The notes beneath the pieces are model-generated. The model was not told the origin of the DNA. It searched no databases and saw nothing but the letters and a program-made list of their open reading frames with translations. From Eubacteriales bacterium (GTDB lineage Bacteria; Bacillota; Clostridia; Oscillospirales; QAKW01): a DNA stretch of 64,000 nucleotides. Positions 33,758-60,145 of this stretch are shown here, in pieces. Position numbers and translations under genes: made by a program. How positions within the stretch are numbered: position 1 is the stretch's first letter; each line of letters opens with the position of its first letter. Where the stretch lies: NCBI GenBank assembly GCA_045541555.1, contig JAZQJH010000005.1, positions 752-64,751 on the forward strand, read 5' to 3'.

Positions 33758-33810
33758 AAAATGCGGTGTGCATCAGCACACCGCATTTTTTACCGGAGTA
33801 AAGACCGATC

Positions 33811-33970
33811 AAAAAGAGTGCAGATTTTGTCAATGCGACTGAAGGCGTATGTCGATACGCCGATAGGAGCATTGGCGGAAAGGAGAAAAATCAAAATCTG
33901 AAATCCGCTTTTGCGGATTTCTCCTATAAAAACTAAAAAAGGAAAGAGCAGAAACTCTTTCCTTTTTGTT
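33811..33970 (+). ncRNA. copy A of the repeated structured intergenic element
   Basis: Outer stem CAATGC (33831-33836) pairs with GCATTG (33869-33874). Inner hairpin GGCGTAT-GTCG-ATACGCC lies at 33844-33861. Hairpin AAATCCGC..GCGGATTT lies at 33901-33920. Hairpin GGAAAGAG..CTCTTTCC lies at 33941-33962. Confidence 0.5.
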
Positions 33971-34041
33971 TAACTTTTAAAATTGGCAGAAACCAAATGA
34001 TGAAATGTTATTTTCTCCGGTCTGTGCCTTTTTCATCGGTC

Positions 34042-34572
34042 TTAATAGTTGTAGCCCATTTCGAGAGCTTTGATATTCAGCTCCATCAGGTTGGCGCGCT
34101 TGGCGGAGACTACCTTTTTGAGGGCTTCGGTGATGTCGTCGAAGTTGACCAGTCCGGTCTCCTTGATCATCTTGCCCATCATGATCATATTGGCGAGGGT
34201 GGGAATGCCGGCATCCGCCGCCATCTTGGTGGCAGGGATATAGAAGGCATCTACGTCGCTGCGCTCGACCTTACGGCCGATCAAGGTACTATCCACGAAG
34301 ATCTTGCCGCCCTTGACGGTGGCTTCCTCGTATTTATCGAGAGAGGGCAGGTTCATGGCGATCAGCACGTCGGGGGTGGAGACGATGGGAGAGCCTACGG
34401 GATCATCGCTGAGGATGATGCTGCAGTTGGCGGTACCACCGCGCATTTCGGGACCGTAGGAGGGGAGCCAGCTGACTTCCTTTTGCTCCAGAAGACCCTT
34501 ATAAGCGATAAATTTACCGGCAAAGAGAACGCCCTGTCCGCCGAAACCGGCAATGAGAATTTGAGTTGTCAT
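34042..34572 (-). CDS. 2-oxoacid:ferredoxin oxidoreductase, gamma subunit
   Basis: The start is ILIAGFGGQGVLFAGK. 176 aa. Confidence 0.85.
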   Translation of the reverse strand: MTTQILIAGFGGQGVLFAGKFIAYKGLLEQKEVSWLPSYGPEMRGGTANCSIILSDDPVGSPIVSTPDVLIAMNLPSLDKYEEATVKGGKIFVDSTLIGRKVERSDVDAFYIPATKMAADAGIPTLANMIMMGKMIKETGLVNFDDITEALKKVVSAKRANLMELNIKALEMGYNY

Positions 34573-38363: not shown

Positions 38364-40658
38364 TTACAGCTTATTGCGTTGGATCTTACCGCTGACCGTC
38401 TTGGGAAGGCTATCCCGGAAGACGACCACACGGGGATATTTATAGGGCGCGGTGCGCGCCTTGACGTAATCCTGGATCTCTTTTTTGAGCTCGTCGGTGG
38501 GCTCGGTGCCCTTGACCAGCACGATGCTTGCCTTGACCACCTGGCCGCGAACCTCATCCGGCATGGCGGAGACGCCGCACTCCAGGACGTAGGGAAGCTC
38601 CATGATGACGTTTTCGATCTCGAAGGGTCCGATGCGGTAGCCGGAGGATTTGATGACGTCGTCTACCCGACCCACGTACCAGAAATAACCGTCTTCATCC
38701 CGCCAAGCGGTATCGCCGGTGTGATAATAGCCGTCGTGCCAGCATTCGGCGGTCTTTTCTTCGTCTTTATAGTAACCCTTGAAGAGGCCGCAGGGTGCGC
38801 CCTTGCTGACGTTGATACAGATCTCACCCACGTCACCCACCGGCACGTCCTTGCCGTCGGCATCCAGCAGATGGATGTCATAAAGGGGAACCGGCTTACC
38901 CATAGAGCCCAGCCGCGTCTTGGTACCTGCCAGATTGGCCAGCGCTACGGTAGTCTCGGTCTGACCGAAGCCTTCCATGATCTGCAGACCGGTGGCCTTT
39001 TCAAACTGACGGAATACCTCGGGGTTGAGGGCTTCGCCGGCGGTGGTCATATGCTCGATGGAAGAAAGATCGAATTTGGAAAGATCCTGCTTGATCATCA
39101 GCCGCAGCATGGTGGGCGGCGCGCAGAAGGTGGTGATATTATACTTGGCGAACATCGGCAGAATGTCGTCGGCATCGAAGCGATCGAAGTCGTAGACAAA
39201 GAGGCCGGCTTCGCAAAGCCACTGACCGTAGATCTTACCCCAGGCGGCTTTCGCCCAGCCGGTATCGGAGATGGTCAGGTGCAGACCCTCGGGATTGATG
39301 CAATGCCAATACTTGGCGGTGATCAGGTGACCCAAAGGATATTTATAACTATGCATGGCAATCTTGGGATTGCCGGTGGTGCCGGAGGTGAAGTACATCA
39401 GCATGGGATCGTCGCCGCAGGGAGCGCCCTCGCCTCGATCGTAGCGGCCGGTATAGAGCTCGTACTCTGCATCAAAGGAACGCCAGCCCTCCATGGTGCC
39501 GTTCACCATCAGCTTATGCTCCAGGGTGGGGCAATGGGGCGCGGCTTTATCCACTTCTACCGCCACGTTATCGTCGCAGGTGCAGACCACCATCTTGACG
39601 CCGGCTTTATTGATGCGGTATTCGATATCATGCTCTTTTAACTGGTTGGTGGCAGGGATGGCCACCGCGCCGATCTTATGCAACGCCAGTATACAGAACC
39701 AGAACTGATAGTGCCGCTTCAGCACCAGCATGACCTTATCGCCCTTTTGGATGCCCAAGGATTTAAAGTAGTTGGCAGTCTGGGAGGAGGCGCGCTTCAT
39801 ATCGGAGAAGGTGAAGCGGCGCTCGGTGCCGTCCTTGCTGATATGGAGCATCGCCAGCTTCTCCGGCTGCTCCCGACCCATCCGGTCGATGACGTCAAAG
39901 GCAAAGTTGAAGGAATTCTCATTCTTAAAGGAGATGGCCTTGGGGACGCCGTTCTCATCTTCGTCCACAAAAGCATAGTCCTGCCAGATGCGCTTGCGAT
40001 CTGCCACCTTCTTTTTCGCCGGGGCAATGAAGTCCCGGGTCTTGCCGGCGTGCACCAGCTTGGTGATGGGCTCGCTGGCAGGGTTCAGCACGATGGCGTA
40101 GAAGATACAGTCCTGATCCTCCACGGCGATCATGCCGTGGGGAGTGGAGGAGTCGTAATAAATACTGTCTCCTTCATGGAGGATCTCCACGTGGTCGCCT
40201 ACCTGCACTTTCAAAGCGCCCTTGACCACGATATCACATTCCTGCCCCTCATGGGTGGTCAGCTCGATATCCGCATTCTCGGACTGGGCATTATAGTCCG
40301 ATACCACGTAAAGGGGCTCTGCAATTCTGTTCTTAAAGGAAGATGCCAGATTATAATAGGTCATGCCGTGCGCCTTCTGGATCTCCTGGCCTTCACCCTT
40401 ACGAGTGACGGTATAGCCTGCCAGACGAGGACCGGTACCTTCGATGATCTCGGTGACGTCCACGTTCAGCGCCAAAGCGCAGCGATAGAGGAACGCAAAG
40501 TTCAGATCCTGCTCGCCTGCCTCGCAGCGAAGATATTCCTCTTCGCTGACGCCGGTCTTCAGCGCCATCTCCGCCTGGGTATAGCCAATAATTTCTCGCA
40601 GCGTTTTGATACGCTGCGCCATTTCCTGAATTTTAAATTCAAGTCCGGTTGCTTTCAT
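38364..40658 (-). CDS. fusion protein: XRE HTH + cupin + AMP-forming short/medium-chain acyl-CoA synthetase (behind the Val T-box)
   Basis: The N-terminus reads RIKTLREIIGYTQAEMALKTGVSEEEY (HTH) then HEGQE..GD..H..GDS.YYDS..PH (cupin). The C-terminus carries YFTSGTTGNPK, ISDTGW, YHTGD and GRVDDVIKSSGYRIGPFEIE. Confidence 0.8.
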   Translation of the reverse strand: MKATGLEFKIQEMAQRIKTLREIIGYTQAEMALKTGVSEEEYLRCEAGEQDLNFAFLYRCALALNVDVTEIIEGTGPRLAGYTVTRKGEGQEIQKAHGMTYYNLASSFKNRIAEPLYVVSDYNAQSENADIELTTHEGQECDIVVKGALKVQVGDHVEILHEGDSIYYDSSTPHGMIAVEDQDCIFYAIVLNPASEPITKLVHAGKTRDFIAPAKKKVADRKRIWQDYAFVDEDENGVPKAISFKNENSFNFAFDVIDRMGREQPEKLAMLHISKDGTERRFTFSDMKRASSQTANYFKSLGIQKGDKVMLVLKRHYQFWFCILALHKIGAVAIPATNQLKEHDIEYRINKAGVKMVVCTCDDNVAVEVDKAAPHCPTLEHKLMVNGTMEGWRSFDAEYELYTGRYDRGEGAPCGDDPMLMYFTSGTTGNPKIAMHSYKYPLGHLITAKYWHCINPEGLHLTISDTGWAKAAWGKIYGQWLCEAGLFVYDFDRFDADDILPMFAKYNITTFCAPPTMLRLMIKQDLSKFDLSSIEHMTTAGEALNPEVFRQFEKATGLQIMEGFGQTETTVALANLAGTKTRLGSMGKPVPLYDIHLLDADGKDVPVGDVGEICINVSKGAPCGLFKGYYKDEEKTAECWHDGYYHTGDTAWRDEDGYFWYVGRVDDVIKSSGYRIGPFEIENVIMELPYVLECGVSAMPDEVRGQVVKASIVLVKGTEPTDELKKEIQDYVKARTAPYKYPRVVVFRDSLPKTVSGKIQRNKL

Positions 40659-40985: not shown

Positions 40986-41044
40986 ACATCTTGCGAGAAT
41001 TTGTCAATAGTTTATTAATATATTTATATATTATTTAGACTGCC

Positions 41045-41210
41045 GAAAAAGCGTGCAGATTTCGTCAACTCGACCGAAGGCGTATGTGATACGTCGATGG
41101 GAGAGTTGGCGGAAAGCAGAAAATTTCAATCAAATCCGCATTGGCGGATTTTTCCTTATCGAAAAAACAGAGAGAAAGAGTACAAACCCTCCCTCTCTCT
41201 GCGTTTTTAA
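41045..41210 (+). ncRNA. copy B of the repeated structured intergenic element
   Basis: Outer stem CAACTC (41066-41071) pairs with GAGTTG (41103-41108). The inner hairpin lies at 41079-41095. Hairpin AAATCCGC..GCGGATTTTT lies at 41132-41153. A second hairpin lies at 41168-41201. Confidence 0.5.
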
Positions 41211-41272
41211 AATAATTGAAAAACCAGTGTTTTTTGCTTTTCTGCGGTCTGTGCCTTTTTCGGGAGTCGAGG

Positions 41273-43540
41273 TTAGAGCTTATTTCTTTGGATTTTACCG
41301 CTGATGGTCTTGGGCAGTTCGTCCTTGAAGACGATGACCCGGGGATACTTATAGGGGGCGGTATGGGTCTTGACGTAGTTCTGGATCTCCTTTTTGAGTT
41401 CCTCGGTGCCTTCGGTGCCGGGGGTCAGCACGATGCTGGCCTTGACCACCTGACCGCGGATCTCATCGGGAGCGGCGGAAACGCCGCATTCCAGGACGTA
41501 GGGAAGCTCCATGATGACGCTTTCGATCTCAAAGGGTCCGATGCGGTAGCCGGAGGATTTGATGACGTCGTCGATCCGGCTGACGTACCAGAAATAACCG
41601 TCCTCGTCCCGCCATGCGGTATCGCCGGTGTGATACATGCCGTCGTACCAGGCGTTGTCGGTCTTCTCCTGATCGCGGTAATACTGCTTAAAGAGACCGC
41701 AGGGGATGGACTTATCGGTATGGATGACGATTTCGCCGGTCTCGCCATCTGCCACCGGGTTGCCCTCGGGGTCAACGATATCCACGTCGAACTGGGGAGA
41801 TGCCTTGCCCATAGAGCCGATCTTGGGGGCGGTGCCGACCAGGTTGCCGATGGCAAGGGTGGTCTCGGTCTGACCGAAGCCCTCCATGATCTCCAGGCCG
41901 GTGGCATCCCGGAACTGCTTGAATACTTCGGGGTTCAAGGCCTCGCCGGCGGTGGTCATATGATGGATGGAGGAGAGATCGTATTTGGAGAGATCTCCCT
42001 TGATGAGCATTCTCAGCATGGTGGGAGGAGCGCAGAAGGTGGTGATATTGTACTTGGCGAACATGGGGAGGATCTCGTCGGCATCAAAGCGGTCGAAATC
42101 GTAGACGAAGACGGCGCCCTCGCAGAGCCATTGACCGTAGAGCTTACCCCAGAGGGATTTGCCCCAGCCGGTATCGGAGATGGTCAGATGCAAGCCGACC
42201 CGCTCACAACAATGCCAGTACTTAGCGGTAACAAAGTGCCCCAGGCCATAAGTATGCTTATGGGCGGCCATCTTGGGATTGCCGGTGGTGCCGGAGGTGA
42301 AGAACATCAGGGCGATCTCATCACCGCCGCCGCAATCGGCAGTCCGCTCAAATTTGGTGGAGAACCGGGCAAATTCGGTGTTGAAATCATGCCAGCCCTC
42401 TTTCGGCTGACCGACGATGATCTTGGTCTTGAGGCAGTCGCATTTTTCTGCGGCGGCTGCGGCGATATCGGCGGTATCGCCGTCGGAGGTGCAGACGATG
42501 GCGCTGACACCGGCAGCGGTATAACGATATTCAAAGTCGTGCTCCTTGAGCTGGTTGGTGGCCGGGATGGCGATGGCACCCAGCTTATGCAGGGCGATCA
42601 TGGCGAACCAGAACTGATAGTGGCGCTTCAGCACCAGCATGACCCGGTCGCCCTTCTTGATGCCCAGAGAAGCAAAATAGTTTGCGGTCTGGTTGCTGTA
42701 TTTCTTGATATCCTTGAAGGTGAAGCGGCGCTCATTTTTATGAACGTCCAGATGGAGCATCGCCAGCTTATCGGGATACTTATCGGCGATGGCGTCCACG
42801 ATGTCAAAGCCGTAGTTGAAGTGTTCGGTATTGACGAACTCGATCTTTTGCAGACTGCCATGCTCGTCTTCCTGGGTCTTGACGAACTTTTCGCAGATGA
42901 GCTCCTCAGACTTTTTGGCGGTCACGATGCTCTTGCGGACGGTAGACTCCTTGGTCTCCTCGCCGGGCAATACCACTGCCAAAAAGACGCAGTCGGCACC
43001 GTCTACGGCGATCATGCCGTGGGGAGTAGAAGAGTTATAATAGATGCTGTCGCCCTCATGCAGGAGTTCGGTATGTTCGCCGATCTGCACCTTCAGGGAG
43101 CCGCTGAGGATCAGGTCAAATTCCTGACCGCTGTGCTTGGTGAGGTGGATGGGCTTATTCTGCTGAGCGGGATCGTATTCATAGCGTACGTGGTACGGCT
43201 CCGCGATTTTATCCCGGAACATCGGTGCGAGGTTGCGGATGTCAATGCCGTCCTCCTGCGCGGTGGTCTGACCCTGACCCTTCCGGGTGACGGTATAGCT
43301 GGAAAGACGGGCGGAATGACCCTCCAAAAGCTCGGTCAGCTCCACGTCAAAAGCCAATGCACACTTATGTATAAAGGTAAAGGGAATATCCGCTTGAGCG
43401 TTTTCGTAAATCAGATACTGCTCCCGGCTGACTTCTGTTTTGGCAGCCATTTCGCCGACCGACCAGCCCAGAATATCACGCATCTCCTTGATACGGGCGG
43501 CGATCTCAGTCAATCGAAGCATTGCGGTGTTGGTGTTCAT
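41273..43540 (-). CDS. fusion protein: XRE HTH + cupin + AMP-forming acyl-CoA synthetase, paralog (behind the Ile T-box)
   Basis: Same architecture and long identical blocks (DFDRFDAD.ILPMFAKYNITTFCAPPTML). The true start is the ATG at 43540 (MNTNTAML), after the leader terminator. The ORF-track start at 43657 lies inside the T-box. Confidence 0.8.
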   Translation of the reverse strand: MNTNTAMLRLTEIAARIKEMRDILGWSVGEMAAKTEVSREQYLIYENAQADIPFTFIHKCALAFDVELTELLEGHSARLSSYTVTRKGQGQTTAQEDGIDIRNLAPMFRDKIAEPYHVRYEYDPAQQNKPIHLTKHSGQEFDLILSGSLKVQIGEHTELLHEGDSIYYNSSTPHGMIAVDGADCVFLAVVLPGEETKESTVRKSIVTAKKSEELICEKFVKTQEDEHGSLQKIEFVNTEHFNYGFDIVDAIADKYPDKLAMLHLDVHKNERRFTFKDIKKYSNQTANYFASLGIKKGDRVMLVLKRHYQFWFAMIALHKLGAIAIPATNQLKEHDFEYRYTAAGVSAIVCTSDGDTADIAAAAAEKCDCLKTKIIVGQPKEGWHDFNTEFARFSTKFERTADCGGGDEIALMFFTSGTTGNPKMAAHKHTYGLGHFVTAKYWHCCERVGLHLTISDTGWGKSLWGKLYGQWLCEGAVFVYDFDRFDADEILPMFAKYNITTFCAPPTMLRMLIKGDLSKYDLSSIHHMTTAGEALNPEVFKQFRDATGLEIMEGFGQTETTLAIGNLVGTAPKIGSMGKASPQFDVDIVDPEGNPVADGETGEIVIHTDKSIPCGLFKQYYRDQEKTDNAWYDGMYHTGDTAWRDEDGYFWYVSRIDDVIKSSGYRIGPFEIESVIMELPYVLECGVSAAPDEIRGQVVKASIVLTPGTEGTEELKKEIQNYVKTHTAPYKYPRVIVFKDELPKTISGKIQRNKL

Positions 43541-43565
43541 GGTGTTTTCTCCTTTACAAAATTTA

Positions 43566-43837
43566 AAAATAAAAAGACTCGTCTCAAATTTCTTTGAGAC
43601 GAGTCTTGAATAAACAATACCCGCGGTACCACTCAAATTGCATCCAAAGGATGCCACTCAGGCTCTATCAAGCCGTATGCATTCACGCAGCAATCACGAA
43701 GGGCGCCTACCTATCGGACCCTCAGCTCGGAAGTGATGGGAAATTCAGCAGTCCTTTACCGGGATCACACCACCCCCGGCTCTCTTTGAAAATCGTTGCC
43801 GATTCCGTCTTCGTCATCGCTTTTACAATATGAAATT
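43566..43837 (-). promoter_or_regulatory. T-box leader, putative Ile specifier (AUC, plus-strand 43735-43737)
   Basis: Promoter TTGACA (43867-43872, rc) / 17 nt / TAAAAT (43844-43849, rc). Stem I is GCGATGACGAAG...CTTCCGAGC. AGAGAG and GGTGGTG are present. The T-box is AATTTGAGTGGTACCGCGGG. The terminator AAGACTCGTCTC..GAGACGAGTCTT is followed by a U-run. Confidence 0.8.
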
Positions 43838-43888
43838 ATGATTATTTTAGCACCGCTTTTCGGCGTTGTCAATAGTTTTTTGAAAAAA

Positions 43889-46339
43889 TTATTTCAGTCC
43901 CAATTGCTCGATGGAATTTTCTCTCATCTTGTATTTCAGGATCTTACCGGCGGCGTTCATGGGGAAGGAATCGGTGAGGATGAAATAGCGGGGTACCTTA
44001 TGCATCGCCATATGGGCGGCGCCATAAGCGCGCATCTCTTCCTCATCGGAGGTCTGACCCTCATGCAGGATGATCCAGGCGCAGCATTCCTCGCCGTAGC
44101 GCTGGTCGGGAACGCCCACCACCTGCACGTCGCGCACCTTGGGATGGGTGAGATAGAATTCCTCGATCTCCCGGGGGTAGAGGTTTTCACCGCCGCGGAT
44201 GATCATATCCTTCAGCCGTCCGGTAATCTTGTAGTAACCGTCGGGGGTGCGGCAGGCAATATCGCCGCTATGCAGCCAGCCATCGGCGTCGATGGCCTCG
44301 GCAGTCGCCTTGGGCATTTTATAATAGCCCTTCATGATGTTGAAGCCGCGTGCCACGAACTCGCCGTTCTCGCCGTCCGGCAATTCTTCGCCGGTCTCCG
44401 GGTCGATGATCTTACACTCCACGCCGGGGAAGGCGGAACCGACGGTTTCCACCCGGTGATCCAGATCCTCATTGACCTCGCCCATGGTACAGCCGGGGGA
44501 TGCCTCGGTCTGACCATAAACGCTGATGATCTCGCGCATATTCATCTCCACCGAGGCGCGGCGCATCAGATCTGCCGGGCAGTTGGCACCGGCCATGATG
44601 CCGGTACGCATATGGGAGAAATCGGTCTTGCCGAAATCCTCATGGTTAAACATGGCGATGAACATGGTCGGCACGCCGTTAAAGCAGGTGATCTTTTCAT
44701 CGTTGATGCAGGCCAGCGAGGACTTGGGAGAGAAGTAGGGCATGGGGCAGATGGTGCCGCCATGGGTCATCAGGTTGGTCATGGAAAGGACCATGCCGAA
44801 GCAATGGAACATCGGCACCTGGATCATCATACGATCCGCGGTGGAGATATCCATCCGGTCGCCGATGGTCTTGCCGTTATTGATGATATTGCGGTGGGTC
44901 AGCATGACGCCCTTGGGGAAGCCGGTGGTACCGGAGGTGTACTGCATATTGCAGACGTCGTCCGGCTTGACGGCCGCCGCCAGGCGGCGAACCTCCTCCC
45001 GGGGAATGGCATCGCCTTTTTCCACGAACTCATCCCACTCTAAGCAGCCCGCCATCTTAAAGCCGACGGTAATGACGTTGCGCAGGAAGGGCAGATTTTT
45101 GGAATAGAGGGGCTCGCCGGGCCTGGTATTCTTCAGCTCGGGGCAGAGCTCTTCGATAATCCCCTTATAATCGGAATCTCTGCAGTTTTCGATCATGACG
45201 AGGGTATGGGTATCGGACTGGCGGAAGAGGTATTCCGCCTCATGGATCTTATAAGCGGTATTGACTGTTACCAGCACTGCACCGATCTTGACACTGGCCC
45301 AGAAGATGATAAACCATTGGGGGATATTGGTCGCCCAGATGGATACGTGGTGACCGGGCTTGACGCCCATAGCAATGAGGGCGGCTGCCGTGCGGTCCAC
45401 GTCCTCCCGGAACTGGGCATAGGTACGGGTATAATCCAGGGTGGTGTACTTAAAGGCGTACTGGTCGGGGTAGCGCTCCACCATCTCGTCCAATACCTGA
45501 GAGAAGGTCAGGTCGATGACCTCGTACTTCTTCCAGGGGAAGGTGCCGGTCTTATCCCGGTTATAAAAGATCTCCCGGGGCTTTGCGGCGGTGGGGAGTT
45601 TGCCGGAAATATAGCTGATGAAATGGGTCAATACAATATCGGGGTCGGTGATCTCTTCATTCCAGTCCACCGCCAGATAGCCCTCGTAGTTGAGGGAGCG
45701 GAGGGCGTTCATGAAGTCTGCAACCGGCAGAACGCCGTCACCCAAGAGGACGTCCTTGCCCTCTTTGCGGTCACCGATCCGGACGTAGTTGATATAAGCA
45801 CCCAAGTTCTGAATGGTGGTATCGGCATCTTCCTTGGCGGTGAAATAGGTCTCCCGGATATTCCAGCAGACGCCGATGCAGGCAGAGCCGAAGCTGCGGA
45901 TGATCTCGATGATCTTTTGGGTGTCTGCCAGAGCGCCGACGGTCTCGATCAGGATGAGAGCGCCATTTTTCTCTGCTTTTTTAATGGCAGGGGCGAAGAC
46001 CTTTTTCAGCGCATCGGAATCCGGCTCGCCGATCTGCACCACTACGCCCAATGCGGAGGCACGCGCCGCCAGGCTGACGTATTTTTTTAGCAGTTCGGGA
46101 TCGGTGGCGGACGTCACCGGCTCGGGGCAGGTAAGGAAAGAAACGCCGATATGGCGATTGATCAGCTTGCGCTTGGCGGCGGCGTTGACCGCAGAGCGGA
46201 GGATGCTATCCTCATGGGCTTCCTTTTCGGCGATGGGGTCGAAAAGCTCAAAGCCGTCAAAGCCGTATTCAGCCGTCAGATTGCAGAGGTTGATATAACT
46301 CTCTGCCGGTACATTTTTGGTTGAAAAAACTAATTTCAT
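43889..46339 (-). CDS. fusion protein: xylose-isomerase-like TIM barrel + FadD-type AMP-forming acyl-CoA ligase
   Basis: 816 aa. The N-terminal ~260 aa follow the sugar-phosphate isomerase/epimerase-like pattern (..GFDGFELF..). The C-terminus carries MQYTSGTTGFPKGVMLTH, WLHSGD and GRLKDMIIRGGENLYPREIE. Confidence 0.7.
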   Translation of the reverse strand: MKLVFSTKNVPAESYINLCNLTAEYGFDGFELFDPIAEKEAHEDSILRSAVNAAAKRKLINRHIGVSFLTCPEPVTSATDPELLKKYVSLAARASALGVVVQIGEPDSDALKKVFAPAIKKAEKNGALILIETVGALADTQKIIEIIRSFGSACIGVCWNIRETYFTAKEDADTTIQNLGAYINYVRIGDRKEGKDVLLGDGVLPVADFMNALRSLNYEGYLAVDWNEEITDPDIVLTHFISYISGKLPTAAKPREIFYNRDKTGTFPWKKYEVIDLTFSQVLDEMVERYPDQYAFKYTTLDYTRTYAQFREDVDRTAAALIAMGVKPGHHVSIWATNIPQWFIIFWASVKIGAVLVTVNTAYKIHEAEYLFRQSDTHTLVMIENCRDSDYKGIIEELCPELKNTRPGEPLYSKNLPFLRNVITVGFKMAGCLEWDEFVEKGDAIPREEVRRLAAAVKPDDVCNMQYTSGTTGFPKGVMLTHRNIINNGKTIGDRMDISTADRMMIQVPMFHCFGMVLSMTNLMTHGGTICPMPYFSPKSSLACINDEKITCFNGVPTMFIAMFNHEDFGKTDFSHMRTGIMAGANCPADLMRRASVEMNMREIISVYGQTEASPGCTMGEVNEDLDHRVETVGSAFPGVECKIIDPETGEELPDGENGEFVARGFNIMKGYYKMPKATAEAIDADGWLHSGDIACRTPDGYYKITGRLKDMIIRGGENLYPREIEEFYLTHPKVRDVQVVGVPDQRYGEECCAWIILHEGQTSDEEEMRAYGAAHMAMHKVPRYFILTDSFPMNAAGKILKYKMRENSIEQLGLK

Positions 46340-48012: not shown

Positions 48013-48044
48013 GTTAAATATTTTAATGCAACTTTTTGGAAATG

Positions 48045-48833
48045 TCAATACTTTTTTAAAATTTTTTCGGCGTTGCGGTAAGCAATTTTTTCCTTATCCT
48101 CATCCCGGAGGTTCATCTGCAGAAAGTATTCCGCTTCTTCCTTGGGATCCCAAAGGGGGAAGTCGCTTCCGTAGAGCACCCGATCAGCGCCGTAGAGGTC
48201 GATATATTTATAAAAATCCTCTTCGCTCATGAACTGACGGGAGCTGGAAAGATCCACCCAGCAGTTTTCGTTTTTCAGAAGCTCATACGCCATTCCCTGA
48301 ACGCCCCAACCGCCAAAATGGGCACCGATGACCTCCAGCTTCGGAAAGTTTTCCAGCACCTTCAAAAGCCGCCGGGGGTGGGAGTAATCGTAGCGCGGAT
48401 CGCCGGTATGCATGATGATGGGCATTTTGCCCTGGATATAATCATACATGGGGAAAAGCCGCTCGTCGTCGATATTAAAAAGCTGGGTATCGGGATGGAT
48501 CTTGATGCCGAGAAGTCCGCTCTTTTCGATAAACTTCAGTTCTTCCTCCAGATCGTCCATGGCGGCGTGAACGGTGCCAAAGCCATGAAATTCCGGGTGG
48601 AGCGCCACTTCGTCGATAATATTCTGATTGATCTTGCGAACCTGCTTGGGATTGAGTGCTACCGGGAGCACCACGAACTCCGAAATGCCGCCGGCCTTGC
48701 CACGCTCCAGCAAGAATTCTGCCGTGCCGTGGACACCGCCCTGATCCATTTCGTAGAAATCCCGGACTGCCTGGGTTGCCTTATCGGCGATGGCTTCGGG
48801 ATAAATATGGGTATGAAAGTCAATTAATTTCAA
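48045..48833 (-). CDS. amidohydrolase-family (TIM-barrel metal-dependent hydrolase) protein
   Basis: KLIDFHTHIYP is near the N-terminus. I prefer the TTG at 48833 (RBS AAGGTG). The promoter TTGACA / 17 nt / TAAACT would place the transcription start near the ORF-track GTG at 48869. Confidence 0.6.
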   Translation of the reverse strand: MKLIDFHTHIYPEAIADKATQAVRDFYEMDQGGVHGTAEFLLERGKAGGISEFVVLPVALNPKQVRKINQNIIDEVALHPEFHGFGTVHAAMDDLEEELKFIEKSGLLGIKIHPDTQLFNIDDERLFPMYDYIQGKMPIIMHTGDPRYDYSHPRRLLKVLENFPKLEVIGAHFGGWGVQGMAYELLKNENCWVDLSSSRQFMSEEDFYKYIDLYGADRVLYGSDFPLWDPKEEAEYFLQMNLRDEDKEKIAYRNAEKILKKY

Positions 48834-49532: not shown

Positions 49533-51290
49533 TTATTCAAATTGTGCGTTATAGAGTTCTTTATAAAAACCGCCCTTTTGCATTAGTTCTTGATGAGTGC
49601 CGCGCTGGACGATGGCGCCGTCCTTGACTACCAGGATGAGATCAGCGTCCCGGATGGTGGAGAGCCGATGGGCGACCACAAAGCAGGTCTTGCCCTTCAT
49701 CAGCTTCAGCATGGCGCGTTGCACCAGTTTTTCCGTCCGGGTATCCACGTTGGAGGTAGCTTCGTCTAAGATCAGCATCTGGCAGTCCATCAGCATCGCC
49801 CGGGCGATGGTCAGAAGCTGTTTTTGCCCTTTGGAGATATTGGCGGCATCGTCGGTGAGGAGGGTATCGTAGCCCTCCGGCAATCCCATGATAAAGGAAT
49901 GGATACCGGCGGCCTTGGCGGCGGCGATGACCTCCTCTTGGGTGGCATTCGGCCGGCCGTAGGCAATGTTATCGTAGATCGTGCCGTAGAAAAGCCAGGT
50001 CTCCTGCAGTACCATGGAATAGGCCAGCCGCAGGCTGTCACGGGTGATGGACTGGATATCGGTGCCGTCCAGGGAGACGGAGCCTTTTTCGATCTCATAG
50101 AACCGCATCAGCAGATTGATGAGGGTACTCTTTCCGGCGCCGGTGGGACCGACGATGGCGATGGTCTTGCCCGGCTCTGCCACTAAGGAAAAATCATGCA
50201 GGATCTGACGCTCCGGCAGATAGCCGAAATCCACGTTTTTCAAGGTGACCTCGCCCTGAACCTCTGCGACGGGCAGGGCCTTGGGGGCGTCTGCCGGTTC
50301 CGGCAGTTCGTCCATCAGACCGAAAATTCGCTCGGCGGCGGAAAGCGCCGATTGCAGTTCGTTGAAGATATTGGCGATCTCCTGGATGGGGCCGGAAAAC
50401 CGCCGGCTATAGAGGACGAAGCTGGAAATATTACCGATGGAGATGGCGGTTCCGCCGGAGGTGATGTAGAGAAATGCGCCCAGCACGGAGATCAGTGCCA
50501 GGGAAAGGTTATTGACGACGTTCATGGAGGGACCCATGGTGGCGCCGTAGTATTCCGCTTTGTAGTAGGCCTCCACCACCGTCTCGTCCTCGGCATCAAA
50601 GTCCCGGAGGACGTTGGTTTCCTGGTTATAGGACTTCAGCGTCTTTTGCCCGGAGATCTTTTCCTCCACAAAATCGTTGAGTTCGCCCAGCTTACGGCTG
50701 CGACGGCGAAAGAGAGGGCGGGTACGCTTAGTAATAAACCGGGTCATCAGAATGGAGAGTGGGATGGTGATGACGGTGATGATCAGCAGTACGGGGCTGA
50801 TTCGCAACATCATATAAAAGGAACCGACGATGGTGATAAAACCGGTAAAGATATGAACCACATCCGATGCCAGCGATTCGCTGATGTTATCCGCATCGTA
50901 GGAGATGCGGCTGAGGATATCTCCGGGGGGATGGCTGTCGTAAAAGCCCACCGGCAGCTCCGCTAACCGCTCAAAGAGATCCTGCCGGAGACGGAAGGTG
51001 ACGTTTCGGGCGATATGGATCATGACAATCTGCAGGACGTACGACATGGCTGCAGAGATAACGTAAAAGACGGTCATCCAGCCGGCATACCGAAGGACTG
51101 CCGGGAAGTCCACCTTCCCCATGCCGCCTGCAGCGGCGTCGATGGCCTTGCCGGAAAGCTCCGGCGCCAAAAGTGCCAGAATATTGGAGGTGACGGCCAG
51201 AAGGATGGCCAGCATTAAAAACCATTTGAATTTCAAAAGGTACCCGAAGAGCCGCAGCAGTGCGGATCTTTTTCCGTTTCGTTGGCTCAT
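49533..51290 (-). CDS. ABC exporter, fused permease/ATPase (heterodimer partner B)
   Basis: Walker A GPTGAGKST, signature ISKGQKQLL and Walker B LILDEATSNVD. Confidence 0.85.
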   Translation of the reverse strand: MSQRNGKRSALLRLFGYLLKFKWFLMLAILLAVTSNILALLAPELSGKAIDAAAGGMGKVDFPAVLRYAGWMTVFYVISAAMSYVLQIVMIHIARNVTFRLRQDLFERLAELPVGFYDSHPPGDILSRISYDADNISESLASDVVHIFTGFITIVGSFYMMLRISPVLLIITVITIPLSILMTRFITKRTRPLFRRRSRKLGELNDFVEEKISGQKTLKSYNQETNVLRDFDAEDETVVEAYYKAEYYGATMGPSMNVVNNLSLALISVLGAFLYITSGGTAISIGNISSFVLYSRRFSGPIQEIANIFNELQSALSAAERIFGLMDELPEPADAPKALPVAEVQGEVTLKNVDFGYLPERQILHDFSLVAEPGKTIAIVGPTGAGKSTLINLLMRFYEIEKGSVSLDGTDIQSITRDSLRLAYSMVLQETWLFYGTIYDNIAYGRPNATQEEVIAAAKAAGIHSFIMGLPEGYDTLLTDDAANISKGQKQLLTIARAMLMDCQMLILDEATSNVDTRTEKLVQRAMLKLMKGKTCFVVAHRLSTIRDADLILVVKDGAIVQRGTHQELMQKGGFYKELYNAQFE

Positions 51291-52999
51291 GCGATCACCT
51301 CCTCGCCGGTCTGCAAGGTGTAGATCTCTTTATAAAGCGGGCATTCCTTCAAAAGTTCCTCATGGGTACCCAGCCCCATGGGCTTGCCGTCCTCCAATAC
51401 CAGGATCTGATCGCAATGACGCACCGAGCTGACGCGCTGGGCAATGATGATGGAGGTGGTATCGGCGTAGCGCTCCCGGAGGGTCTTGCGCAGTGCCGCG
51501 TCGGTCTTGAAGTCCAGTGCACTGGAGGAGTCGTCCAGGATCAAGTATTCCGGATGACCCGCCAAGGCACGGGCGATGAGCAGACGTTGCTTCTGACCGC
51601 CGGAGAGATTGGATGCCTTGGGCTCGATCAACGCGGTAAGACCGCCCTTTTCCGCCACAAATCCGTCTGCTTGAGCATCCTTTAATGCCTCAAGGAGCTG
51701 GTCGTCGGTCAGCGGTCTGCCGATGCGGATATTTTCGCCGATGGTATCCCGGAAAAGCTGGTCATTTTGAAAGACTACGCCGAAGTTTTTGCGGATCTCG
51801 CAAGGGCTCATACTGCGGAGATCTTTCCCATGCAGCGTGATCTGCCCCTCATCGGGATCGTAAAACCGCATCAGCAGAGCGGCCAGCGTGCTCTTTCCGG
51901 CACCGGTGGGACCTAAGATGCCCAGACTCTCGCCTTTTTTAAGCTGAAAGGAAATCTTGGAGAGATTTTCTCTTTTTTTGTGATAAGAAAAGGTGACGTT
52001 TTCAAAGCAGATGGCGGCGTCCGGATGGCGCTCCTCATGGGCTTCGATCAGCAGGTCGGTGGGCAGATCCAGAATTTCCTGAATGCGCCGCGCCGAGGCA
52101 ATGGAGCGAGAGAACATGGCGATGACCCGGGTGATGGTCATGATGGCATTGAGAATGATTGTGAAATAGGAAAGAAAGGCGGTGATGGTGCCCACGCCGG
52201 TGGCGCCCTGATGGACGCGCCATGCGCCGGCAATGACCACCAAAACCAAGCCTAAATTAAGCAGCAGGTTCATGACGGGGGAGTTGACCGCCATGGTGCG
52301 GTTGGCACGGCTTTCCGCCTTATAAACGCCGCGGTTGACTTGATAAAAACGCTTTTTTTCGTCCTCCGTCTTGGAAAGTGCCTTGATGACCCGTACGCCG
52401 CTGACGTTTTCGCGGACGGTACGCACCAGCTCGTCGTTGCGCTCCTGCAGGGCGGCAAAAAGGGGGACGGTACGTTTGGAAAGCAGGTAGACGCTGATGC
52501 TCATGATGGGGAGCATGGCGGTGAGAATTCCTGCCAGCACCGGATCCAGTGTCCAGGTGATGATAATTCCACCCAGCACCAAGATGGGCGCCCGTACACC
52601 GATGCGCTGCATCATACCGATCATGCGATGGAGATTATAGGTATCGGTGGTCATTCGGGAGATGAGAGAGGGAATGGTGGCGGTGTCTACCTGGCGATTG
52701 GAGAGGGCAAAGATCTTTTGGAAAAGATCGTGGCGGATATCAAAGACTGCATTGCGCGCCACCATGGAGGCAGAGCGGTTGGCGAAGATGTTTCCCAACC
52801 AGGCAAAGGCGGTGCAAAAGAGCATCAGCACGCCCCACCAAATCACGGGGGTCATCGCCTTGGTGGGGATGACGTGATCGATAATATGCGCCAGGATATA
52901 GGGGAGCACCAGATCCATACAGGTGCCGAAGAACTTGATGATAAAGCCGAAGATCATCTGACGAAGATGAGGGCGTATGTATTTGAGGATCAGTTGCAT
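51287..52999 (-). CDS. ABC exporter, fused permease/ATPase (heterodimer partner A)
   Basis: [18 protein letters not shown] and LILDDSSSALD. It overlaps the downstream partner by 4 nt. Confidence 0.85.
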   Translation of the reverse strand: MQLILKYIRPHLRQMIFGFIIKFFGTCMDLVLPYILAHIIDHVIPTKAMTPVIWWGVLMLFCTAFAWLGNIFANRSASMVARNAVFDIRHDLFQKIFALSNRQVDTATIPSLISRMTTDTYNLHRMIGMMQRIGVRAPILVLGGIIITWTLDPVLAGILTAMLPIMSISVYLLSKRTVPLFAALQERNDELVRTVRENVSGVRVIKALSKTEDEKKRFYQVNRGVYKAESRANRTMAVNSPVMNLLLNLGLVLVVIAGAWRVHQGATGVGTITAFLSYFTIILNAIMTITRVIAMFSRSIASARRIQEILDLPTDLLIEAHEERHPDAAICFENVTFSYHKKRENLSKISFQLKKGESLGILGPTGAGKSTLAALLMRFYDPDEGQITLHGKDLRSMSPCEIRKNFGVVFQNDQLFRDTIGENIRIGRPLTDDQLLEALKDAQADGFVAEKGGLTALIEPKASNLSGGQKQRLLIARALAGHPEYLILDDSSSALDFKTDAALRKTLRERYADTTSIIIAQRVSSVRHCDQILVLEDGKPMGLGTHEELLKECPLYKEIYTLQTGEEVIA

Positions 53000-53102
53000 C
53001 CGTAAACCTCGTTCCTTATAGTTTTCTTGCTATTATTATAAAATGCTTTGACCATCCCGTCAATAAAAAAATCCTCCCGGCGAACCGGGAGGATATGAGA
53101 CT

Positions 53103-54857
53103 TTATGCAGTCTTTTTCTTTTGTACCATATAGATGGCGGTAAGAACGGCTAAGAGCAGGAGCAGGGAAACGCCCAGAATGACGAAGACGTTCTGGATAA
53201 AGCCTGCCATCAGATAACCGACCAAGGAAACGGCGGCGACGGTGAGTGCGTAGGGCAGTTGGGTGGCTACGTGGTTGACGTGGTCACTCTTGGCACCGGC
53301 GGAAGCCATGATGGTGGTATCGGAGATGGGGGAGCAATGGTCACCGCAGACCGCACCGGACAGGCAGGCGGCGATGCAGATGACGACCATGGCAGGGATG
53401 GCGGCGCTATCGGTAACGCCGGCCAACTGACCCTCAAAGACACCGGTAACGATGGGAATCAGGATACCGAAGGTGCCCCAAGAGGTACCGGTGGCAAAGG
53501 AAAGACCGCAAGCCACCAGGAAGAGCAGGGCAGGCAGCAGGATCTGCAGTGCCTTGGCACTCTCTACCAGGGCGGCCACGTAGCCGCTGGCATCCAAAAG
53601 CCCGGTCATGGATTTCAGACCCCAGGCGAAGGTCAGGATCAGGATGGCGGGAACCATCTGCTTGAAGCCCTCGGGGATGGCGGCGGTGCACTCTTTGAAG
53701 GAAAGCACGCGGCGGCACATAAAATAGATCATATTCAAGATCAAAGCGGCGATGGAGCCGACGGCCAGACCATAGGCGGCATCGCAGTTGGCAAAGGAAT
53801 TGATAAAGCTTTCGCCGGAGAAGAAGCCGCCGGTATAGATCATACCTGCTACGCAGAGGATGATGAGGATGGCCACCGGGATGATCAGATCCATGACCTT
53901 GCCGCGGGGATTGGATTTTTCATCCTCTTCGCCGGAGAACTGCTCGCCGCCGGAGGTATAAAGATCGCCGTTCAGGGCGTTCTTCTCAAAACGCTTCATG
54001 GGACCGAAATCCATGCCGGTAAAGGCAATGAAAAGCACCATGGCGATGGTCAGCAGGGCATAGAGGTTAAAGGGGATGGTCTGGATAAAGAGCGCCAGTC
54101 CGTTGACTCCCTCCACGGTGCCGGAAACGGCAGCCGCCCAGGAAGAGATGGGGGCAATAATACAGATGGGGGCGGCGGTGGCGTCGATGAGATAGGCCAG
54201 CTTTGCCCGGGAGATGCGTTGCTTATCGGTGATAGGGCGCATGACGCTGCCGACGGTCAGACAGTTGAAATAGTCGTCCACAAAGATGAGGGCGCCCAGA
54301 CCAAAGGTGGCCAGCTGCGCACCGCGGCGGTTTTTGATCTTGGCGGATGCCCATTCGCCGTAGGCGCGGCTGCCGCCGGCGTGGTTCATCATCACCACAA
54401 TGGCGCCCAGCACTACCAGGAAGATCAGAATGCCGACGTTCCATTCATCTGCCAGGTTGGCGATAAAGCCTTCATGAACCACGGCGTTGAACATGGTTTC
54501 AAAGCTGAAACCGGTCTGGCTGATGGCATAAAGCACACCGCCGGAAAGAATACCAAGGAAGAGAGAGGAATAGACCTCCTTGGTGATCAGCGCCAGTACA
54601 ATGGCGATGATCGGGGGGAGCAGTGCCCAGAAGGTGCCTTCAAAGAGAGAGGAATAGGTTTCTTCGGTCTCTTCTGAGCCTGCCCCCTCGATGGGAGCGT
54701 CTTCAGTCACCGTTGCTTCGGTGAGGGTGGGTTCTGCCGGAGCGGCAGAGTCGTCCAGTGCAGCGGCGGAGCAGGCAAAAATCCCCAGCATCCCGATGAC
54801 CAGGATGAGGGCGAAGAAGCGGCTCAGCAGCGTTCTGTTGTTTGAGATAAAATTCAT
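53103..54857 (-). CDS. NhaC-family transporter (candidate lysine transporter)
   Basis: 584 aa and polytopic. ATG at 54857 with RBS AGGAGGG. It sits directly behind a lysine riboswitch. Confidence 0.75.
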   Translation of the reverse strand: MNFISNNRTLLSRFFALILVIGMLGIFACSAAALDDSAAPAEPTLTEATVTEDAPIEGAGSEETEETYSSLFEGTFWALLPPIIAIVLALITKEVYSSLFLGILSGGVLYAISQTGFSFETMFNAVVHEGFIANLADEWNVGILIFLVVLGAIVVMMNHAGGSRAYGEWASAKIKNRRGAQLATFGLGALIFVDDYFNCLTVGSVMRPITDKQRISRAKLAYLIDATAAPICIIAPISSWAAAVSGTVEGVNGLALFIQTIPFNLYALLTIAMVLFIAFTGMDFGPMKRFEKNALNGDLYTSGGEQFSGEEDEKSNPRGKVMDLIIPVAILIILCVAGMIYTGGFFSGESFINSFANCDAAYGLAVGSIAALILNMIYFMCRRVLSFKECTAAIPEGFKQMVPAILILTFAWGLKSMTGLLDASGYVAALVESAKALQILLPALLFLVACGLSFATGTSWGTFGILIPIVTGVFEGQLAGVTDSAAIPAMVVICIAACLSGAVCGDHCSPISDTTIMASAGAKSDHVNHVATQLPYALTVAAVSLVGYLMAGFIQNVFVILGVSLLLLLAVLTAIYMVQKKKTA

Positions 54858-54884
54858 CTTTATCCCTCCTATAAAAAATAATAC

Positions 54885-55122
54885 AAAAAAACAGCCCGTA
54901 AAGAACGTGGAATACATTCTTTACGGGCTATTATCATAGTCTTGTAAAAAAGATGGCACTCCACAAATCCTGTGACAGTCCGGCGCATATTCTGCGGCGA
55001 CCCAGCAACCAAATTCCGGGGGTCTGGAACCTGGAAACTTCGGCGGTAGTGCCTTTCACCGGTGCTCCTTTTAAACCCATTGAGTACCGTTACTGATCAA
55101 TACCGCGCCTCCATCGGCTATT
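54885..55122 (-). promoter_or_regulatory. lysine riboswitch (L-box) with intrinsic terminator
   Basis: Minus-strand motifs in order are GAGGCGC, AGTAA, GGTGAAAGG, CGCCGAAG, GCTGGG, CTGTCA and GTGGAGTGC. The terminator is AGCCCGTAAAGAA..TTCTTTACGGGCT plus T7. The promoter is TTGACA / 18 nt / TACTAT. Confidence 0.8.
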
Positions 55123-58360: not shown

Positions 58361-60145
58361 TTATTCTCCTTTTTCTTCCATTTGTGCGGTATAAAGACTA
58401 TAGTAAAGCCCTTGTTTTTCCAATAATTCTTCGTGAGTGCCCTCTTCCTGGATGCCCTTATCGGCAATATACAGGATCTTATCGCATCCGGCAATGGTGG
58501 AAAGACGGTGAGCGATGATAAAGGAGGTGCGCCCTTTCAAAAGGTTGGCGATGCCTTCCTGCACCAGTTTTTCCGTCTCGGTGTCGATGGAGGAGGTGGC
58601 CTCGTCCAAAATCAAAATTCTCGGATCGGAAAGCACCGTCCGGGCAAAGCAGATCAGCTGACGCTGACCGGAAGAGAGGGTGGAGCCCTTTTCGTTGACC
58701 TCGGTATCGTAGCCGTTTTCGGTGTTCATGATGAAGTCATGGGCGCAGACCGTCTTGGCGGCGGCAATGATCTCCTCATCGGTGGCGTCCAGCTTGCCGT
58801 AGCGGATGTTATCCCGGATGGTGCCGGTGAAGATAAAGCTATCCTGCAGCATGATGCCCATCTGGCTCCGAAGCGAATGGAGGGTGGCGTGGCGGATATC
58901 GTGTCCGTCCAGCTTGATCTTGCCGCCTTGAATATCATAGAAGCGGCAAAGGATATTGACGATGGTACTCTTGCCGGCACCGGTGGGTCCTACCAGGGCA
59001 ATGCTCTGACCGGGCTTGGCATGGAGATTGATATGCTCCAGAATGTTGATGCCCTCTTCATAGGCGAAGGTGACGTCTTCATAGTCCACTCGCCCGGTGA
59101 TCTGCGGCAGATCTTTGGCGTCCGGCTCGTCTTTAATATCGATCTTTTCGTCTAAGGTATCAAAGATCCGCTCCAGATAAGAGCCGGTATTGACCAATTG
59201 ATTATAAATATCGGCGATAGATTGGATGGGACCCCAGAACCGGTTGGCATAGGCCGCCATGGCGATGATGACGCCGGGAGCGTACTGCTCCTCGGTAAAG
59301 AGCATGATCGCCGCGAAATAAAGGAAGCAGACGACGATCCGCATGATGTTGCCGATGAGCAGGGTCATGATGAAATTAATGGACGAGGCTTTATATTGCG
59401 CTTTATTGAGCTTATCCACTAATTCTGCATAGATGCCCCGGTTGACCTTTTCCCGGTTGAAGGCCTGGGTGATCTGCATACCGCTGATGGATTCGCTGAC
59501 GTAGGCGGTGGCGTTGGAATTTTTGGCACTCCAATCCGTCCAGGCCTTACGCTGGCGTTTTTTGATCAGTACCAGGTACAAAACGACAAAGGGAAGTCCG
59601 GCCAGGACGCAGAGGGTCAGTTTGGGACTGAGGCTCAGCATGAAGAAGAGGATCAGCACCACCGTCAGTCCTTGGACGACGATATTGACCAAGCCGCCGG
59701 ACAAAAAGTCCGAAACACTATTGACGTAGTTGACCACCCGCACCAGGATCTTGCCCCGGGGACGGCTGTCAAAGTAGTTGAAGGAAAGCTTTTGAATATG
59801 AGAAAAGATGTCGGCGCGGATCTCGTGGATGATCTGATGGCCGGCCTTGCGGGTGAAGATGGTCTGGACAAAGGTGAAGACCTCCGCCAGTACCAGGGTC
59901 AGGAAATAGAGAAGCGCCACGATGACGACGCCCCGAACGTTTTTATCGGGGATGAGATCGTCGATGATGATCTGGGTATAGGTGGGACCCAAAAGTCCGA
60001 AAACGGTGGTGAGGATGCTGCAGATCAAGGCACCGATCAAGGGCTTGACGTTGCGCTTAATGTAGGGACCGCACCGCAAGAAGTTTTTGATATTAAAAGG
60101 GGTCTCAAGGCTTTCGTCCACCCCGTAAGTATTGCGTTTAGCCAT
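58361..60145 (-). CDS. ABC exporter, fused permease/ATPase
   Basis: GPTGAGKST, LSSGQRQL and LILDEATSSID. The ATG at 60145 overlaps the upstream stop by 8 nt. Confidence 0.85.
   Translation of the reverse strand: MAKRNTYGVDESLETPFNIKNFLRCGPYIKRNVKPLIGALICSILTTVFGLLGPTYTQIIIDDLIPDKNVRGVVIVALLYFLTLVLAEVFTFVQTIFTRKAGHQIIHEIRADIFSHIQKLSFNYFDSRPRGKILVRVVNYVNSVSDFLSGGLVNIVVQGLTVVLILFFMLSLSPKLTLCVLAGLPFVVLYLVLIKKRQRKAWTDWSAKNSNATAYVSESISGMQITQAFNREKVNRGIYAELVDKLNKAQYKASSINFIMTLLIGNIMRIVVCFLYFAAIMLFTEEQYAPGVIIAMAAYANRFWGPIQSIADIYNQLVNTGSYLERIFDTLDEKIDIKDEPDAKDLPQITGRVDYEDVTFAYEEGINILEHINLHAKPGQSIALVGPTGAGKSTIVNILCRFYDIQGGKIKLDGHDIRHATLHSLRSQMGIMLQDSFIFTGTIRDNIRYGKLDATDEEIIAAAKTVCAHDFIMNTENGYDTEVNEKGSTLSSGQRQLICFARTVLSDPRILILDEATSSIDTETEKLVQEGIANLLKGRTSFIIAHRLSTIAGCDKILYIADKGIQEEGTHEELLEKQGLYYSLYTAQMEEKGE

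Follow-up and report, generated by a model that had tools for sequence, protein, structure and literature searches.

The question raised by this locus is what kind of element recurs, in highly structured form, in the intergenic regions of a 64-kb stretch of Eubacteriales bacterium DNA (contig JAZQJH010000005.1), the whole of which we call the window. An initial annotation had recognized three repeated, structured intergenic copies in the same orientation (here A, B and C) and had put forward as candidates a novel small RNA (sRNA) family, an element of the repetitive extragenic palindrome (REP) type or of the MITE type (miniature inverted-repeat transposable element), or a recombination site. 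Our analysis favors the second of these: the copies are probably members of an as yet undescribed, MITE-like family of mobile elements, non-coding and found in uncultured Oscillospiraceae-type Clostridia, that targets terminator hairpins and itself supplies terminators. Four observations speak for this view, namely the terminal inverted repeats, the spread in many copies, the differences between close relatives and, in related genomes, the flanking duplications of entire terminator hairpins.

Extent and anatomy of the repeated unit

Alignment, an nhmmer profile and a covariance model all agree on the three copies, which by direct reading and alignment share the plus orientation. The covariance-model check proposed in the initial annotation found the three-copy element exactly three times in the 64 kb, as did, separately, the nhmmer profile. 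The limits of the copies needed revision: the unit is ~231–243 nt long in the window instead of the ~160 nt first given, and copy B, first placed at 41045–41210, extends over 41038–41268 (+, 231 nt) when delimited by its terminal inverted repeats (arms 41038–41051 and 41255–41268; nhmmer match 41031–41273). Copy A occupies 33801–34043 (+, 243 nt; arms 33801–33816 and 34028–34043) and copy C 486–728 (+, 243 nt; arms 486–508 and 706–728). These arms, 14–23 nt long and 87–94% complementary in A, B and C, are kept across the 24 copies of the covariation alignment described below. The ~85% similarity of A and B that had been estimated by eye is borne out over the stretch then compared (87%, 96 of 110 aligned positions), but not over the whole unit, where the pairwise identities among A, B and C are only 69–75%.

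The terminal repeats and a second long-range helix enclose the P1/P2 domain, two terminator-like hairpins (T1 and T2) and a variable hairpin. In copy B, GACTGCCGAAAAAGCGTGCAGA (41038–41059, +) and TCTGTGCCTTTTTCGGGAGTC (41248–41268, +) form the 5' and 3' arms of the closing helix (alignment columns 6–27 paired with 237–258). The second helix joins GCAGAAAA (41116–41123, +) to TTTTCTGC (41238–41245, +; columns 88–95/227–234), its 3' half having been located by inverted-repeat detection. It is present in all three window copies, with the same two sequences in C (564–575/696–707) and with GGAGAAAA/TTTTCTCC, a compensatory change, in A (33882–33889/34011–34018). The irregular P1/P2 hairpin domain (41060–41114, +, in the minimum-free-energy (MFE) fold of B; 33825–33880 in A; ~509–566 in C) corresponds to the outer stem and inner hairpin of the initial annotation. 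Both are real and covarying, the sequence varying while the structure is conserved, with P1 reading CAATGC/GCATTG in A, CAACTC/GAGTTG in B and GGGGCCG/CGGCCCC in C.

In copy B this domain is followed by T1, an intrinsic-terminator-like hairpin (AAATCCGC-ATTG-GCGGATTT) with a T-run (41132–41156, +), and by T2, a terminator-like hairpin with its T-run on the opposite strand (41160–41202, −). A consensus terminator scan finds T2 on the minus strand in A (33936–33967), B and C (624–657), and T1 on the plus strand in B and C (584–609). Both hairpins had initially been read in every copy, and this stands with the exception of T1 in A (33900–33921), whose plus-strand T-run is degraded (GCGGATTTCTCC) and which the scan does not list.

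Copies in related genomes

An exact-pattern scan (T1 plus the T2 arm) of one-genome-per-species contigs yielded 68 loci; L-numbers here designate loci from other genomes. Among these loci the three-copy profile identified at least 33 full or partial copies (nhmmer E-values 1e-23 to 1e-56), spread over 10 related uncultured Eubacteriales/Oscillospiraceae metagenome-assembled genomes (MAGs), nearly all of them named 'Eubacteriales bacterium'; SGB_1301 contributes at least 11 loci and SGB_2618 contributes 8. Chance cannot account for a repeat recovered at this level of significance. The window is 96% identical over 7.6 kb to the SGB_2618 contig L010 and ~90% identical over 7.3 kb to the SGB_1301 contig L055, and the homologues of one flanking protein bear names that include Oscillospiraceae and Faecousia. 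Many of the copies lie at contig ends, as expected of repeats.

Across all copies the unit measures 231–393 nt, below the ~500 nt expected of a MITE, and is non-coding, its one SD-ATG-led small open reading frame being that of the 105-nt module described below. In the extended form (SGB_1301/SGB_2618-type) a 41-nt perfect hairpin, CAGCGTGTCAAAGA-N13-TCTTTGACACGCTG, precedes the core, and the terminal repeat recurs in each of its two arms (compare CAGACTCTCAAAAA at the left end of the core and, in reverse complement, CAGACTGTCAAAAA at its right end). The window copies are without this left hairpin. Copy C belongs to the same subfamily as duplication-flanked copies in relatives, being identical to L011 at 205 of 240 positions. 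Tandem and truncated copies occur, as do short derivatives that keep only the ends and the P1/P2 hairpin (L055 7476–7595 and L062).

Eight copies (L107 3201–3305, L108 820–924, L056, L068, L020, L047, L036 and L013) carry a 105-nt two-hairpin module with compensatory changes of its own. This module, which adds a further GCGGAUUUU, was found only inside elements, at a site that depends on the subfamily: one has it in the P2 loop, another 3' of P2. The orthologues of copy A are polymorphic for it: it is present in L107 (~97–98% identical to the window) and L108 (~95%) and absent from the window and L055. A coding role suggested by a conserved AGGAG-N6-7-ATG was rejected, as the frames and stops differ across the eight copies and the changes are stem-compensatory, and the module is treated as structural.

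The initial annotation could not match the element to a known riboswitch consensus. In Rfam 15 nothing credible matches it in the window or in 15 related loci at gathering thresholds; at E≤10, copies A and B give only weak hairpin or terminator look-alikes, and real matches in the window are limited to a lysine riboswitch and a tRNA. At the sensitivity used, the extended element had no blastn match in plasmid and phage collections, a viral contig scan with the right-end motif gave 0, and the 38 matches of an exact P1-base motif in metagenome contigs (JGI) are all due to chance, none of them matching the element profile. The condition under which the initial annotation would have been refuted, that the copies prove to be fragments of a known insertion sequence (IS) or MITE, does not apply, no known family having matched in the Rfam, phage and plasmid collections. 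A hammerhead-like reading of CUGAAG...GAUAG in copy A was likewise discarded, its core being absent from B and C and Rfam giving no match.

One truncated left end deserves separate mention. In L043 (3418–3510) the left hairpin and the start of the core run into a promoter-like site, a perfect TTGACA-N17-TATAAT, that precedes a small open reading frame (ORF), the −35 box overlapping the CGAATT of the element.

Duplication of whole terminator hairpins

It is the flanks of the extended copies that show the mobility of the family in the relatives. In 13 of the 17 extended copies with both flanks, the same 20–39-nt sequence abuts the two ends of the element within 0–3 nt. Each of these duplicated flanks is a complete palindrome composed of an A-tract, a stem-loop and a T-tract, it is different at every locus (for example, AAAAAAGCCTGCCAAAAGGCAGGCTTTTT in L011 and AAAAACTCCCCGGTCAACCGGGGAGTTTTA in L037), and the length of the duplication follows that of the palindrome. 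The exact pairs were also recovered blindly by a k-mer search. A target-site duplication comprising a whole hairpin implies that the element family is mobile; and since the flanking duplications differ from locus to locus, a site-specific recombination site is not supported.

Close relatives also differ in the element itself. In L010 a copy adjoins a terminator that is unoccupied in the window at ~53060–53100, with an upstream flank that differs there too. The orthologue of copy B in L055 has an internal deletion of ~140 nt, and L028 and L066 have one flank in common and not the other. For copy A there is no clean empty site: the more distant relatives have other neighbors or a different small element at that position.

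The latter is seen in L109–L112, whose POR-gamma gene is 97% identical. In the first ~120 nt after the POR-gamma stop they have, at the position of copy A, a different ~115-nt palindromic mini-element. Within it is a hairpin resembling P2 (CCGAAGCCGTATGCGATACGGCGAGCGG in reverse complement), and after it comes a bidirectional terminator of the ordinary sort; in L109 a minisatellite of the CTCTTACTCT type is present there as well. Neither the element profile nor the covariance model detects this mini-element.

Two other small insertions were noted in the same loci. A second repeat family of ~215 nt, with the ends CAGACTGTAGACAAAC ... GAGAGTGCGACTTTGTCGACACTCTC, is present in L008, L024, L031, L034, L050, L052, L057 (Ruminococcus sp. 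MAG CAZKUO) and L059. It too is flanked by duplications of whole terminator hairpins (e.g. L057 2573–2604 = 2814–2845), and it has the end motif CAGACTGT in common with the element studied here; the shared motif and mode of duplication suggest a shared class of enzyme. An unrelated insertion of ~274 nt (L055 2782–3058, corresponding to ~36621 in the window, from which it is absent) is bounded by terminal inverted repeats of 21 nt (TAGGGTGACAAGAATAATCCG...), with what looks like a TA duplication. Situated between two genes of a 2-oxoacid:ferredoxin oxidoreductase operon, it represents a second MITE family of this lineage.

The mechanism we propose for the hairpin duplications is that an extruded terminator hairpin or cruciform would receive both strands of the element at its base; with strand joining at the base of the palindrome, the stagger would equal the palindrome length and the whole terminator would be duplicated. 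The enzyme would act in trans, the likeliest being a hairpin-targeting DDE transposase of the kind found in IS1630 and ISMhom-1 (IS30 family) or in the IS1182 family. Once in place the element may, to judge from its position, act as a bidirectional terminator cassette. We also considered a guide-RNA mechanism, in which a P1 stem would match the duplicated hairpin, and rejected it when five copies revealed no complementarity by eye.

Genomic setting

The orientation of the flanking genes was called with a codon-usage score trained on the Pfam-confirmed genes of the window, a longest-ORF heuristic having been dropped because it mis-called known genes. In 28 of 30 copies the neighbor on the right is a convergent gene whose 3' end lies toward the element, in 13 of 16 the neighbor on the left is a co-directional gene likewise ending toward it, and 11 of the 15 sites with both flanks callable lie between convergent gene pairs, which is where bidirectional terminators occur.

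In the window, Pfam identifies the genes flanking A as MatE and the POR gamma subunit, those flanking B as two HTH-cupin-AMP-binding paralogues, and those near C as a lipase and a methionine synthase. The right end of A overlaps the stop codon of the minus-strand POR-gamma gene (34042–34572), and 4 nt separate that of B from the stop of the minus-strand gene 41273–43657; in both copies T2 is the first terminator after these convergent genes. In C, T1 follows a plus-strand ORF without a Pfam match whose stop is 16 nt upstream. Copy B has no upstream plus-strand gene. That T2 serves the neighboring genes would be a case of exaptation.

A plus-strand fold under selection

The plus strand of the complete copy B folds at −95.3 kcal/mol (z = −9.05), and the 5' halves of A and B have z-scores of about −5 on the plus strand, as against −3.3 and −1.1 on the minus strand. 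To this we can add the covariation among 24 copies analyzed with RNAalifold, with column shuffles (n=500) and slid alignments as controls. Both sides change in 22 of the 56 predicted pairs. Paired cells amount to 97.8%, compared to 88.8% in the column shuffles, none of which (0/500) reaches the observed value, and there are 112 doubly changed cells instead of 28. The covariation score is 0.291 against 0.119 for the shuffles and at most 0.077 for the slid controls, which have at most 9 pairs with double changes. Many of these copies are closely related, and the cell counts consequently overstate the number of independent events, but the pattern at the level of columns stands. Variation is greatest in P1, where 8 of the 12 pairs change on both sides and one position has AU, GC, CG, UA and GU among the copies.

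This signal is specific to one strand. The closing helix and P1/P2 contain 111 G·T cells (in 16 columns) versus 5 A·C cells, and a covariance model of P1/P2 gives the window copies 74–88 bits on the plus strand versus 17–19 bits on the minus strand (for copy B, 77.9 and 19.1 bits, with the plus-strand match at 41052–41124). T2 has the opposite tendency, with A·C at two otherwise paired columns in 8 and 4 copies. The plus-strand-specific excess of G·T over A·C implies selection of a plus-strand fold in RNA or in single-stranded DNA (ssDNA); the selection on pairing proposed from the three window copies holds on 24. The fold must be needed in single-stranded form, either in read-through RNA of the 3' end of the upstream gene or in an ssDNA stage of the element.

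Objections and alternative explanations

Several points weigh against the terminator-targeting MITE interpretation. The three window copies are without a consistent flanking direct repeat, and their insertion would follow from their membership in the family. Among the relatives compared, L010 included, there is no clean pair of orthologous sites, one filled and one empty, in which both flanks are identical. A search of ~0.9 Mb of loci plus the window detected neither a transposase nor a longer, ORF-bearing element that has these ends: all-against-all blastn of the loci revealed no repeated gene-sized segment, tblastn with an IS30 transposase (an approximate query) found nothing in the examined loci, and the k-mer search for hairpin duplications 150–6000 nt apart gave MITE-sized spacings only. 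The outermost bases of the inverted repeats vary with compensation (AGAC/GTCT, AAAC/GTTT, ATAC/GTAT, AAAT/ATTT), a pattern seldom seen in ends bound by a transposase and more in keeping with a structural constraint. Finally, the internal covariation of P1 and the conserved G·U pairs are unexplained by plain double-stranded cut-and-paste.

In one alternative, which we regard as unlikely, if quite conceivable, the plus-strand fold is the working part of the element. It might be an ssDNA or RNA structure for an undescribed hairpin-directed insertion machinery, one that recognizes the base of the terminator cruciform and duplicates it, in a manner formally like the duplication of the repeat during CRISPR spacer integration. 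Or else it might be a conditional terminator that is mobile, with P1 and T1 in competition for the GCGGAU strand of the latter; the element would then spread a regulatory RNA module to gene 3' ends genome-wide.

In a second alternative the functional RNA would have come first, either as a cis-acting attenuator or riboswitch-like 3'-untranslated-region element or as an sRNA, with P1 controlling T1 and the repeats spreading secondarily. The strong plus-strand-specific covariation with its conserved G·U pairs speaks for this, and the stem of T1 is almost invariant across copies, unlike that of an ordinary terminator. Moreover, one hexamer, GCGGAU, can be read in the alignment both at the 3' base of P1 and as the 3' arm of T1; at P1 it has two potential partners, AUUCGU (the 5' base of P1, with two wobbles) and AUCCGC (the 5' arm of T1). 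Such alternative pairings correspond to the 1:2 / 2:3 / 3:4 layout of an attenuator, and the further GCGGAUUUU of the 105-nt module adds to it; copies with altered T1 stems, which bear on the alternative pairing, number only two. We nevertheless consider this explanation distinctly unlikely. The stability of P1 in the MFE fold is such that T1 forms in every case, and a scan for sigma-70-like promoters found none on the plus strand upstream of A, B or C. The window copies have no plus-strand gene after T1, which is followed by a minus-strand terminator and usually a convergent gene, leaving nothing to regulate. Copy B has no upstream plus-strand gene either, and its orthologue lacks half of the fold. 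On these grounds a free-standing sRNA gene, one of the candidates first proposed, is not supported, and a leader is unlikely as well. There is also no Rfam match, and the hairpin duplications and inverted repeats need a process at the DNA level.

A third possibility is that of an ssDNA element of the IS200/IS605-PATE or REP/REPIN type, moved by an HUH (Y1/RAYT) transposase that recognizes hairpins in one strand. In its favor, the strand-specific hairpins tolerate G·T pairs and vary in their stems while conserving their shape, and there are the short derivatives reduced to the ends and P1/P2. This seems to us quite improbable, because those families have neither terminal inverted repeats nor target duplications, both of which are present here; the unit is also far longer than a REP, and an insensitive search of the examined loci found no TnpA/RAYT-like repeated gene.

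The hairpin duplications might also have arisen without a transposase, by template switching or repair at stalled terminator hairpins, the element being copied from another locus. The variation of the duplication length with the palindrome (20–39 nt), where a fixed length might have been seen, is compatible with this, as is the absence of a detected transposase in the examined loci. Yet the junctions are precise to 0–3 nt at the same element ends in 13 loci, an unrelated-looking family in a Ruminococcus MAG has a CAGACTGT end and the same mode of duplication, pointing to a dedicated enzyme, and known transposases (IS1630, ISMhom-1) make exactly such duplications. A transposase-free route is on balance very improbable. 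Scarcely credible, lastly, is a retron-like msr/msd locus or an integron attC-like site: the inverted repeats do enclose hairpins like retron a1/a2, and the structure is conserved with varying sequence as in attC, but the flanking genes tested with Pfam, all of the ordinary metabolic and transport kind, include neither a reverse transcriptase nor an integrase, copies are numerous within a genome, a cassette array is lacking and the duplications differ from locus to locus.

Other features of the window

Copy B lies within a group of three tandem minus-strand genes for AMP-binding proteins of the acyl/aryl-CoA ligase type (38364–40658, 41273–43657 and 43889–46339). Two of these are paralogous (an N-terminal HTH_3/HTH_19 and Cupin_2 fusion, 75–84% DNA identity in blocks, 2909-nt spacing), and in the third the fusion is with AP_endonuc_2, a xylose-isomerase-like TIM barrel domain. 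TTGACA-containing promoter-like boxes are found on the minus strand at 41001–41027 and 43866–43892, upstream of the first two genes; a similar box at 48042–48068 (−) is further upstream and not adjacent to the third, which starts at 46339.

The lysine riboswitch aptamer (54946–55121, −; RF00168, 88.4 bits, full-length) is directly upstream of a 604-aa ORF (53103–54917, −), and the tRNA gene is at 13708–13781 (+; 68.2 bits). There are, in addition, two pairs of adjacent ABC-transporter-like paralogues (49533–52999 and 58361–61925, −), with Walker-type motifs at 50083, 51846, 58923 and 60709 and spacings of 8840 and 1786 nt.

Implications

If the terminator-targeting MITE interpretation is confirmed, this would be, to our knowledge, the first non-autonomous element with a rare insertion mode otherwise known only from a few ISs of the IS30 and IS1182 types, a mode that would recognize a DNA shape, the terminator hairpin, instead of a sequence. 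It would also mean that, between convergent genes of abundant but uncultured gut Clostridia, the duplication and replacement of entire terminators is routine. With its dozens of insertions and intact target copies, the family is a natural source of data on how a transposase finds the base of a cruciform. There is a warning here as well, in that covariation screens for structured RNAs will pick up such mobile elements; conversely, RNA or ssDNA structures under selection may be present in some 'MITEs'. In genome annotation, many of the contig and synteny breaks in MAGs of this lineage are explained by these elements.

Comparison with known systems

The closest insertion signature is that of IS1630 and ISMhom-1 (IS30 family, Mycoplasma), which are reported to make whole-hairpin duplications of variable length, 16–26 bp, often at the 3' ends of genes (Calcutt et al. 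1999, as cited in PMC3317919 and PMC2853133; PMC7648426). The element studied here leaves the same signature, but those ISs are autonomous, transposase-encoding elements of 1.2–1.4 kb, whereas ours is short, non-coding and highly structured. The likeness to IS30-family mobilization lies in the duplications, and the approximate query brought to light no matching IS30-type transposase in the examined loci. IS30-type elements use junctions of abutted inverted repeats (IR-IR), and the 41-nt hairpin on the left, in which two end repeats abut, may be comparable to these.

IS1272/TnSha1 (IS1182 family, staphylococci) targets terminator hairpins without primary-sequence specificity and inserts at or in the stem (PMC4923244). 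It differs in being an autonomous IS that deletes part of the hairpin and makes no duplication; an insertion of this type could explain the window-type copies that abut stop codons without a duplication. The IS1202 group has a long duplication of fixed length (16–17 or 27–28 bp) and ends of the form 5'-TGT...ACA-3' (PMC10132070). It is a poor fit and was set aside: the duplications seen here vary with the palindrome, and the end repeats are of the CAGNNTGTCAAA type, with CAG...CTG ends. The REP/REPIN-RAYT and IS200/IS605 PATE classes were also rejected, given the terminal inverted repeats and duplications and the lack of a repeated gene in the loci. As for attenuators and riboswitch platforms, the resemblance is in a stable upstream helix whose 3' strand duplicates the 3' arm of the terminator, with mutually exclusive pairings; the difference is that the present element is a mobile repeat without a promoter, a regulated downstream gene or an Rfam family.

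There remain the classical MITEs and small repeats, whose target duplications are typically short and fixed (e.g. TA). Correia/NEMIS, RUP, ERIC, bcr1, SPRITE and EFAR are, like the present family, small, multi-copy, non-coding and intergenic with terminal inverted repeats; they fold into long RNA stem-loops, and some have terminator-like hairpins (PMC3184786, PMC10969869, PMC3733652). Hairpin-length duplications are not described for them in two reviews (PMC3184786, PMC10969869), EFAR being compared from reviews only. The family described here differs from these, as reviewed, in its strand-specific covariation, its modular insertions and its lack of similarity to the annotated records searched, as well as in the duplication of a whole terminator of variable length. 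For an element of the MITE kind, two of its properties are uncommon: the whole-terminator target duplication, and the strongly covarying, plus-strand-specific fold with its modular expansion.

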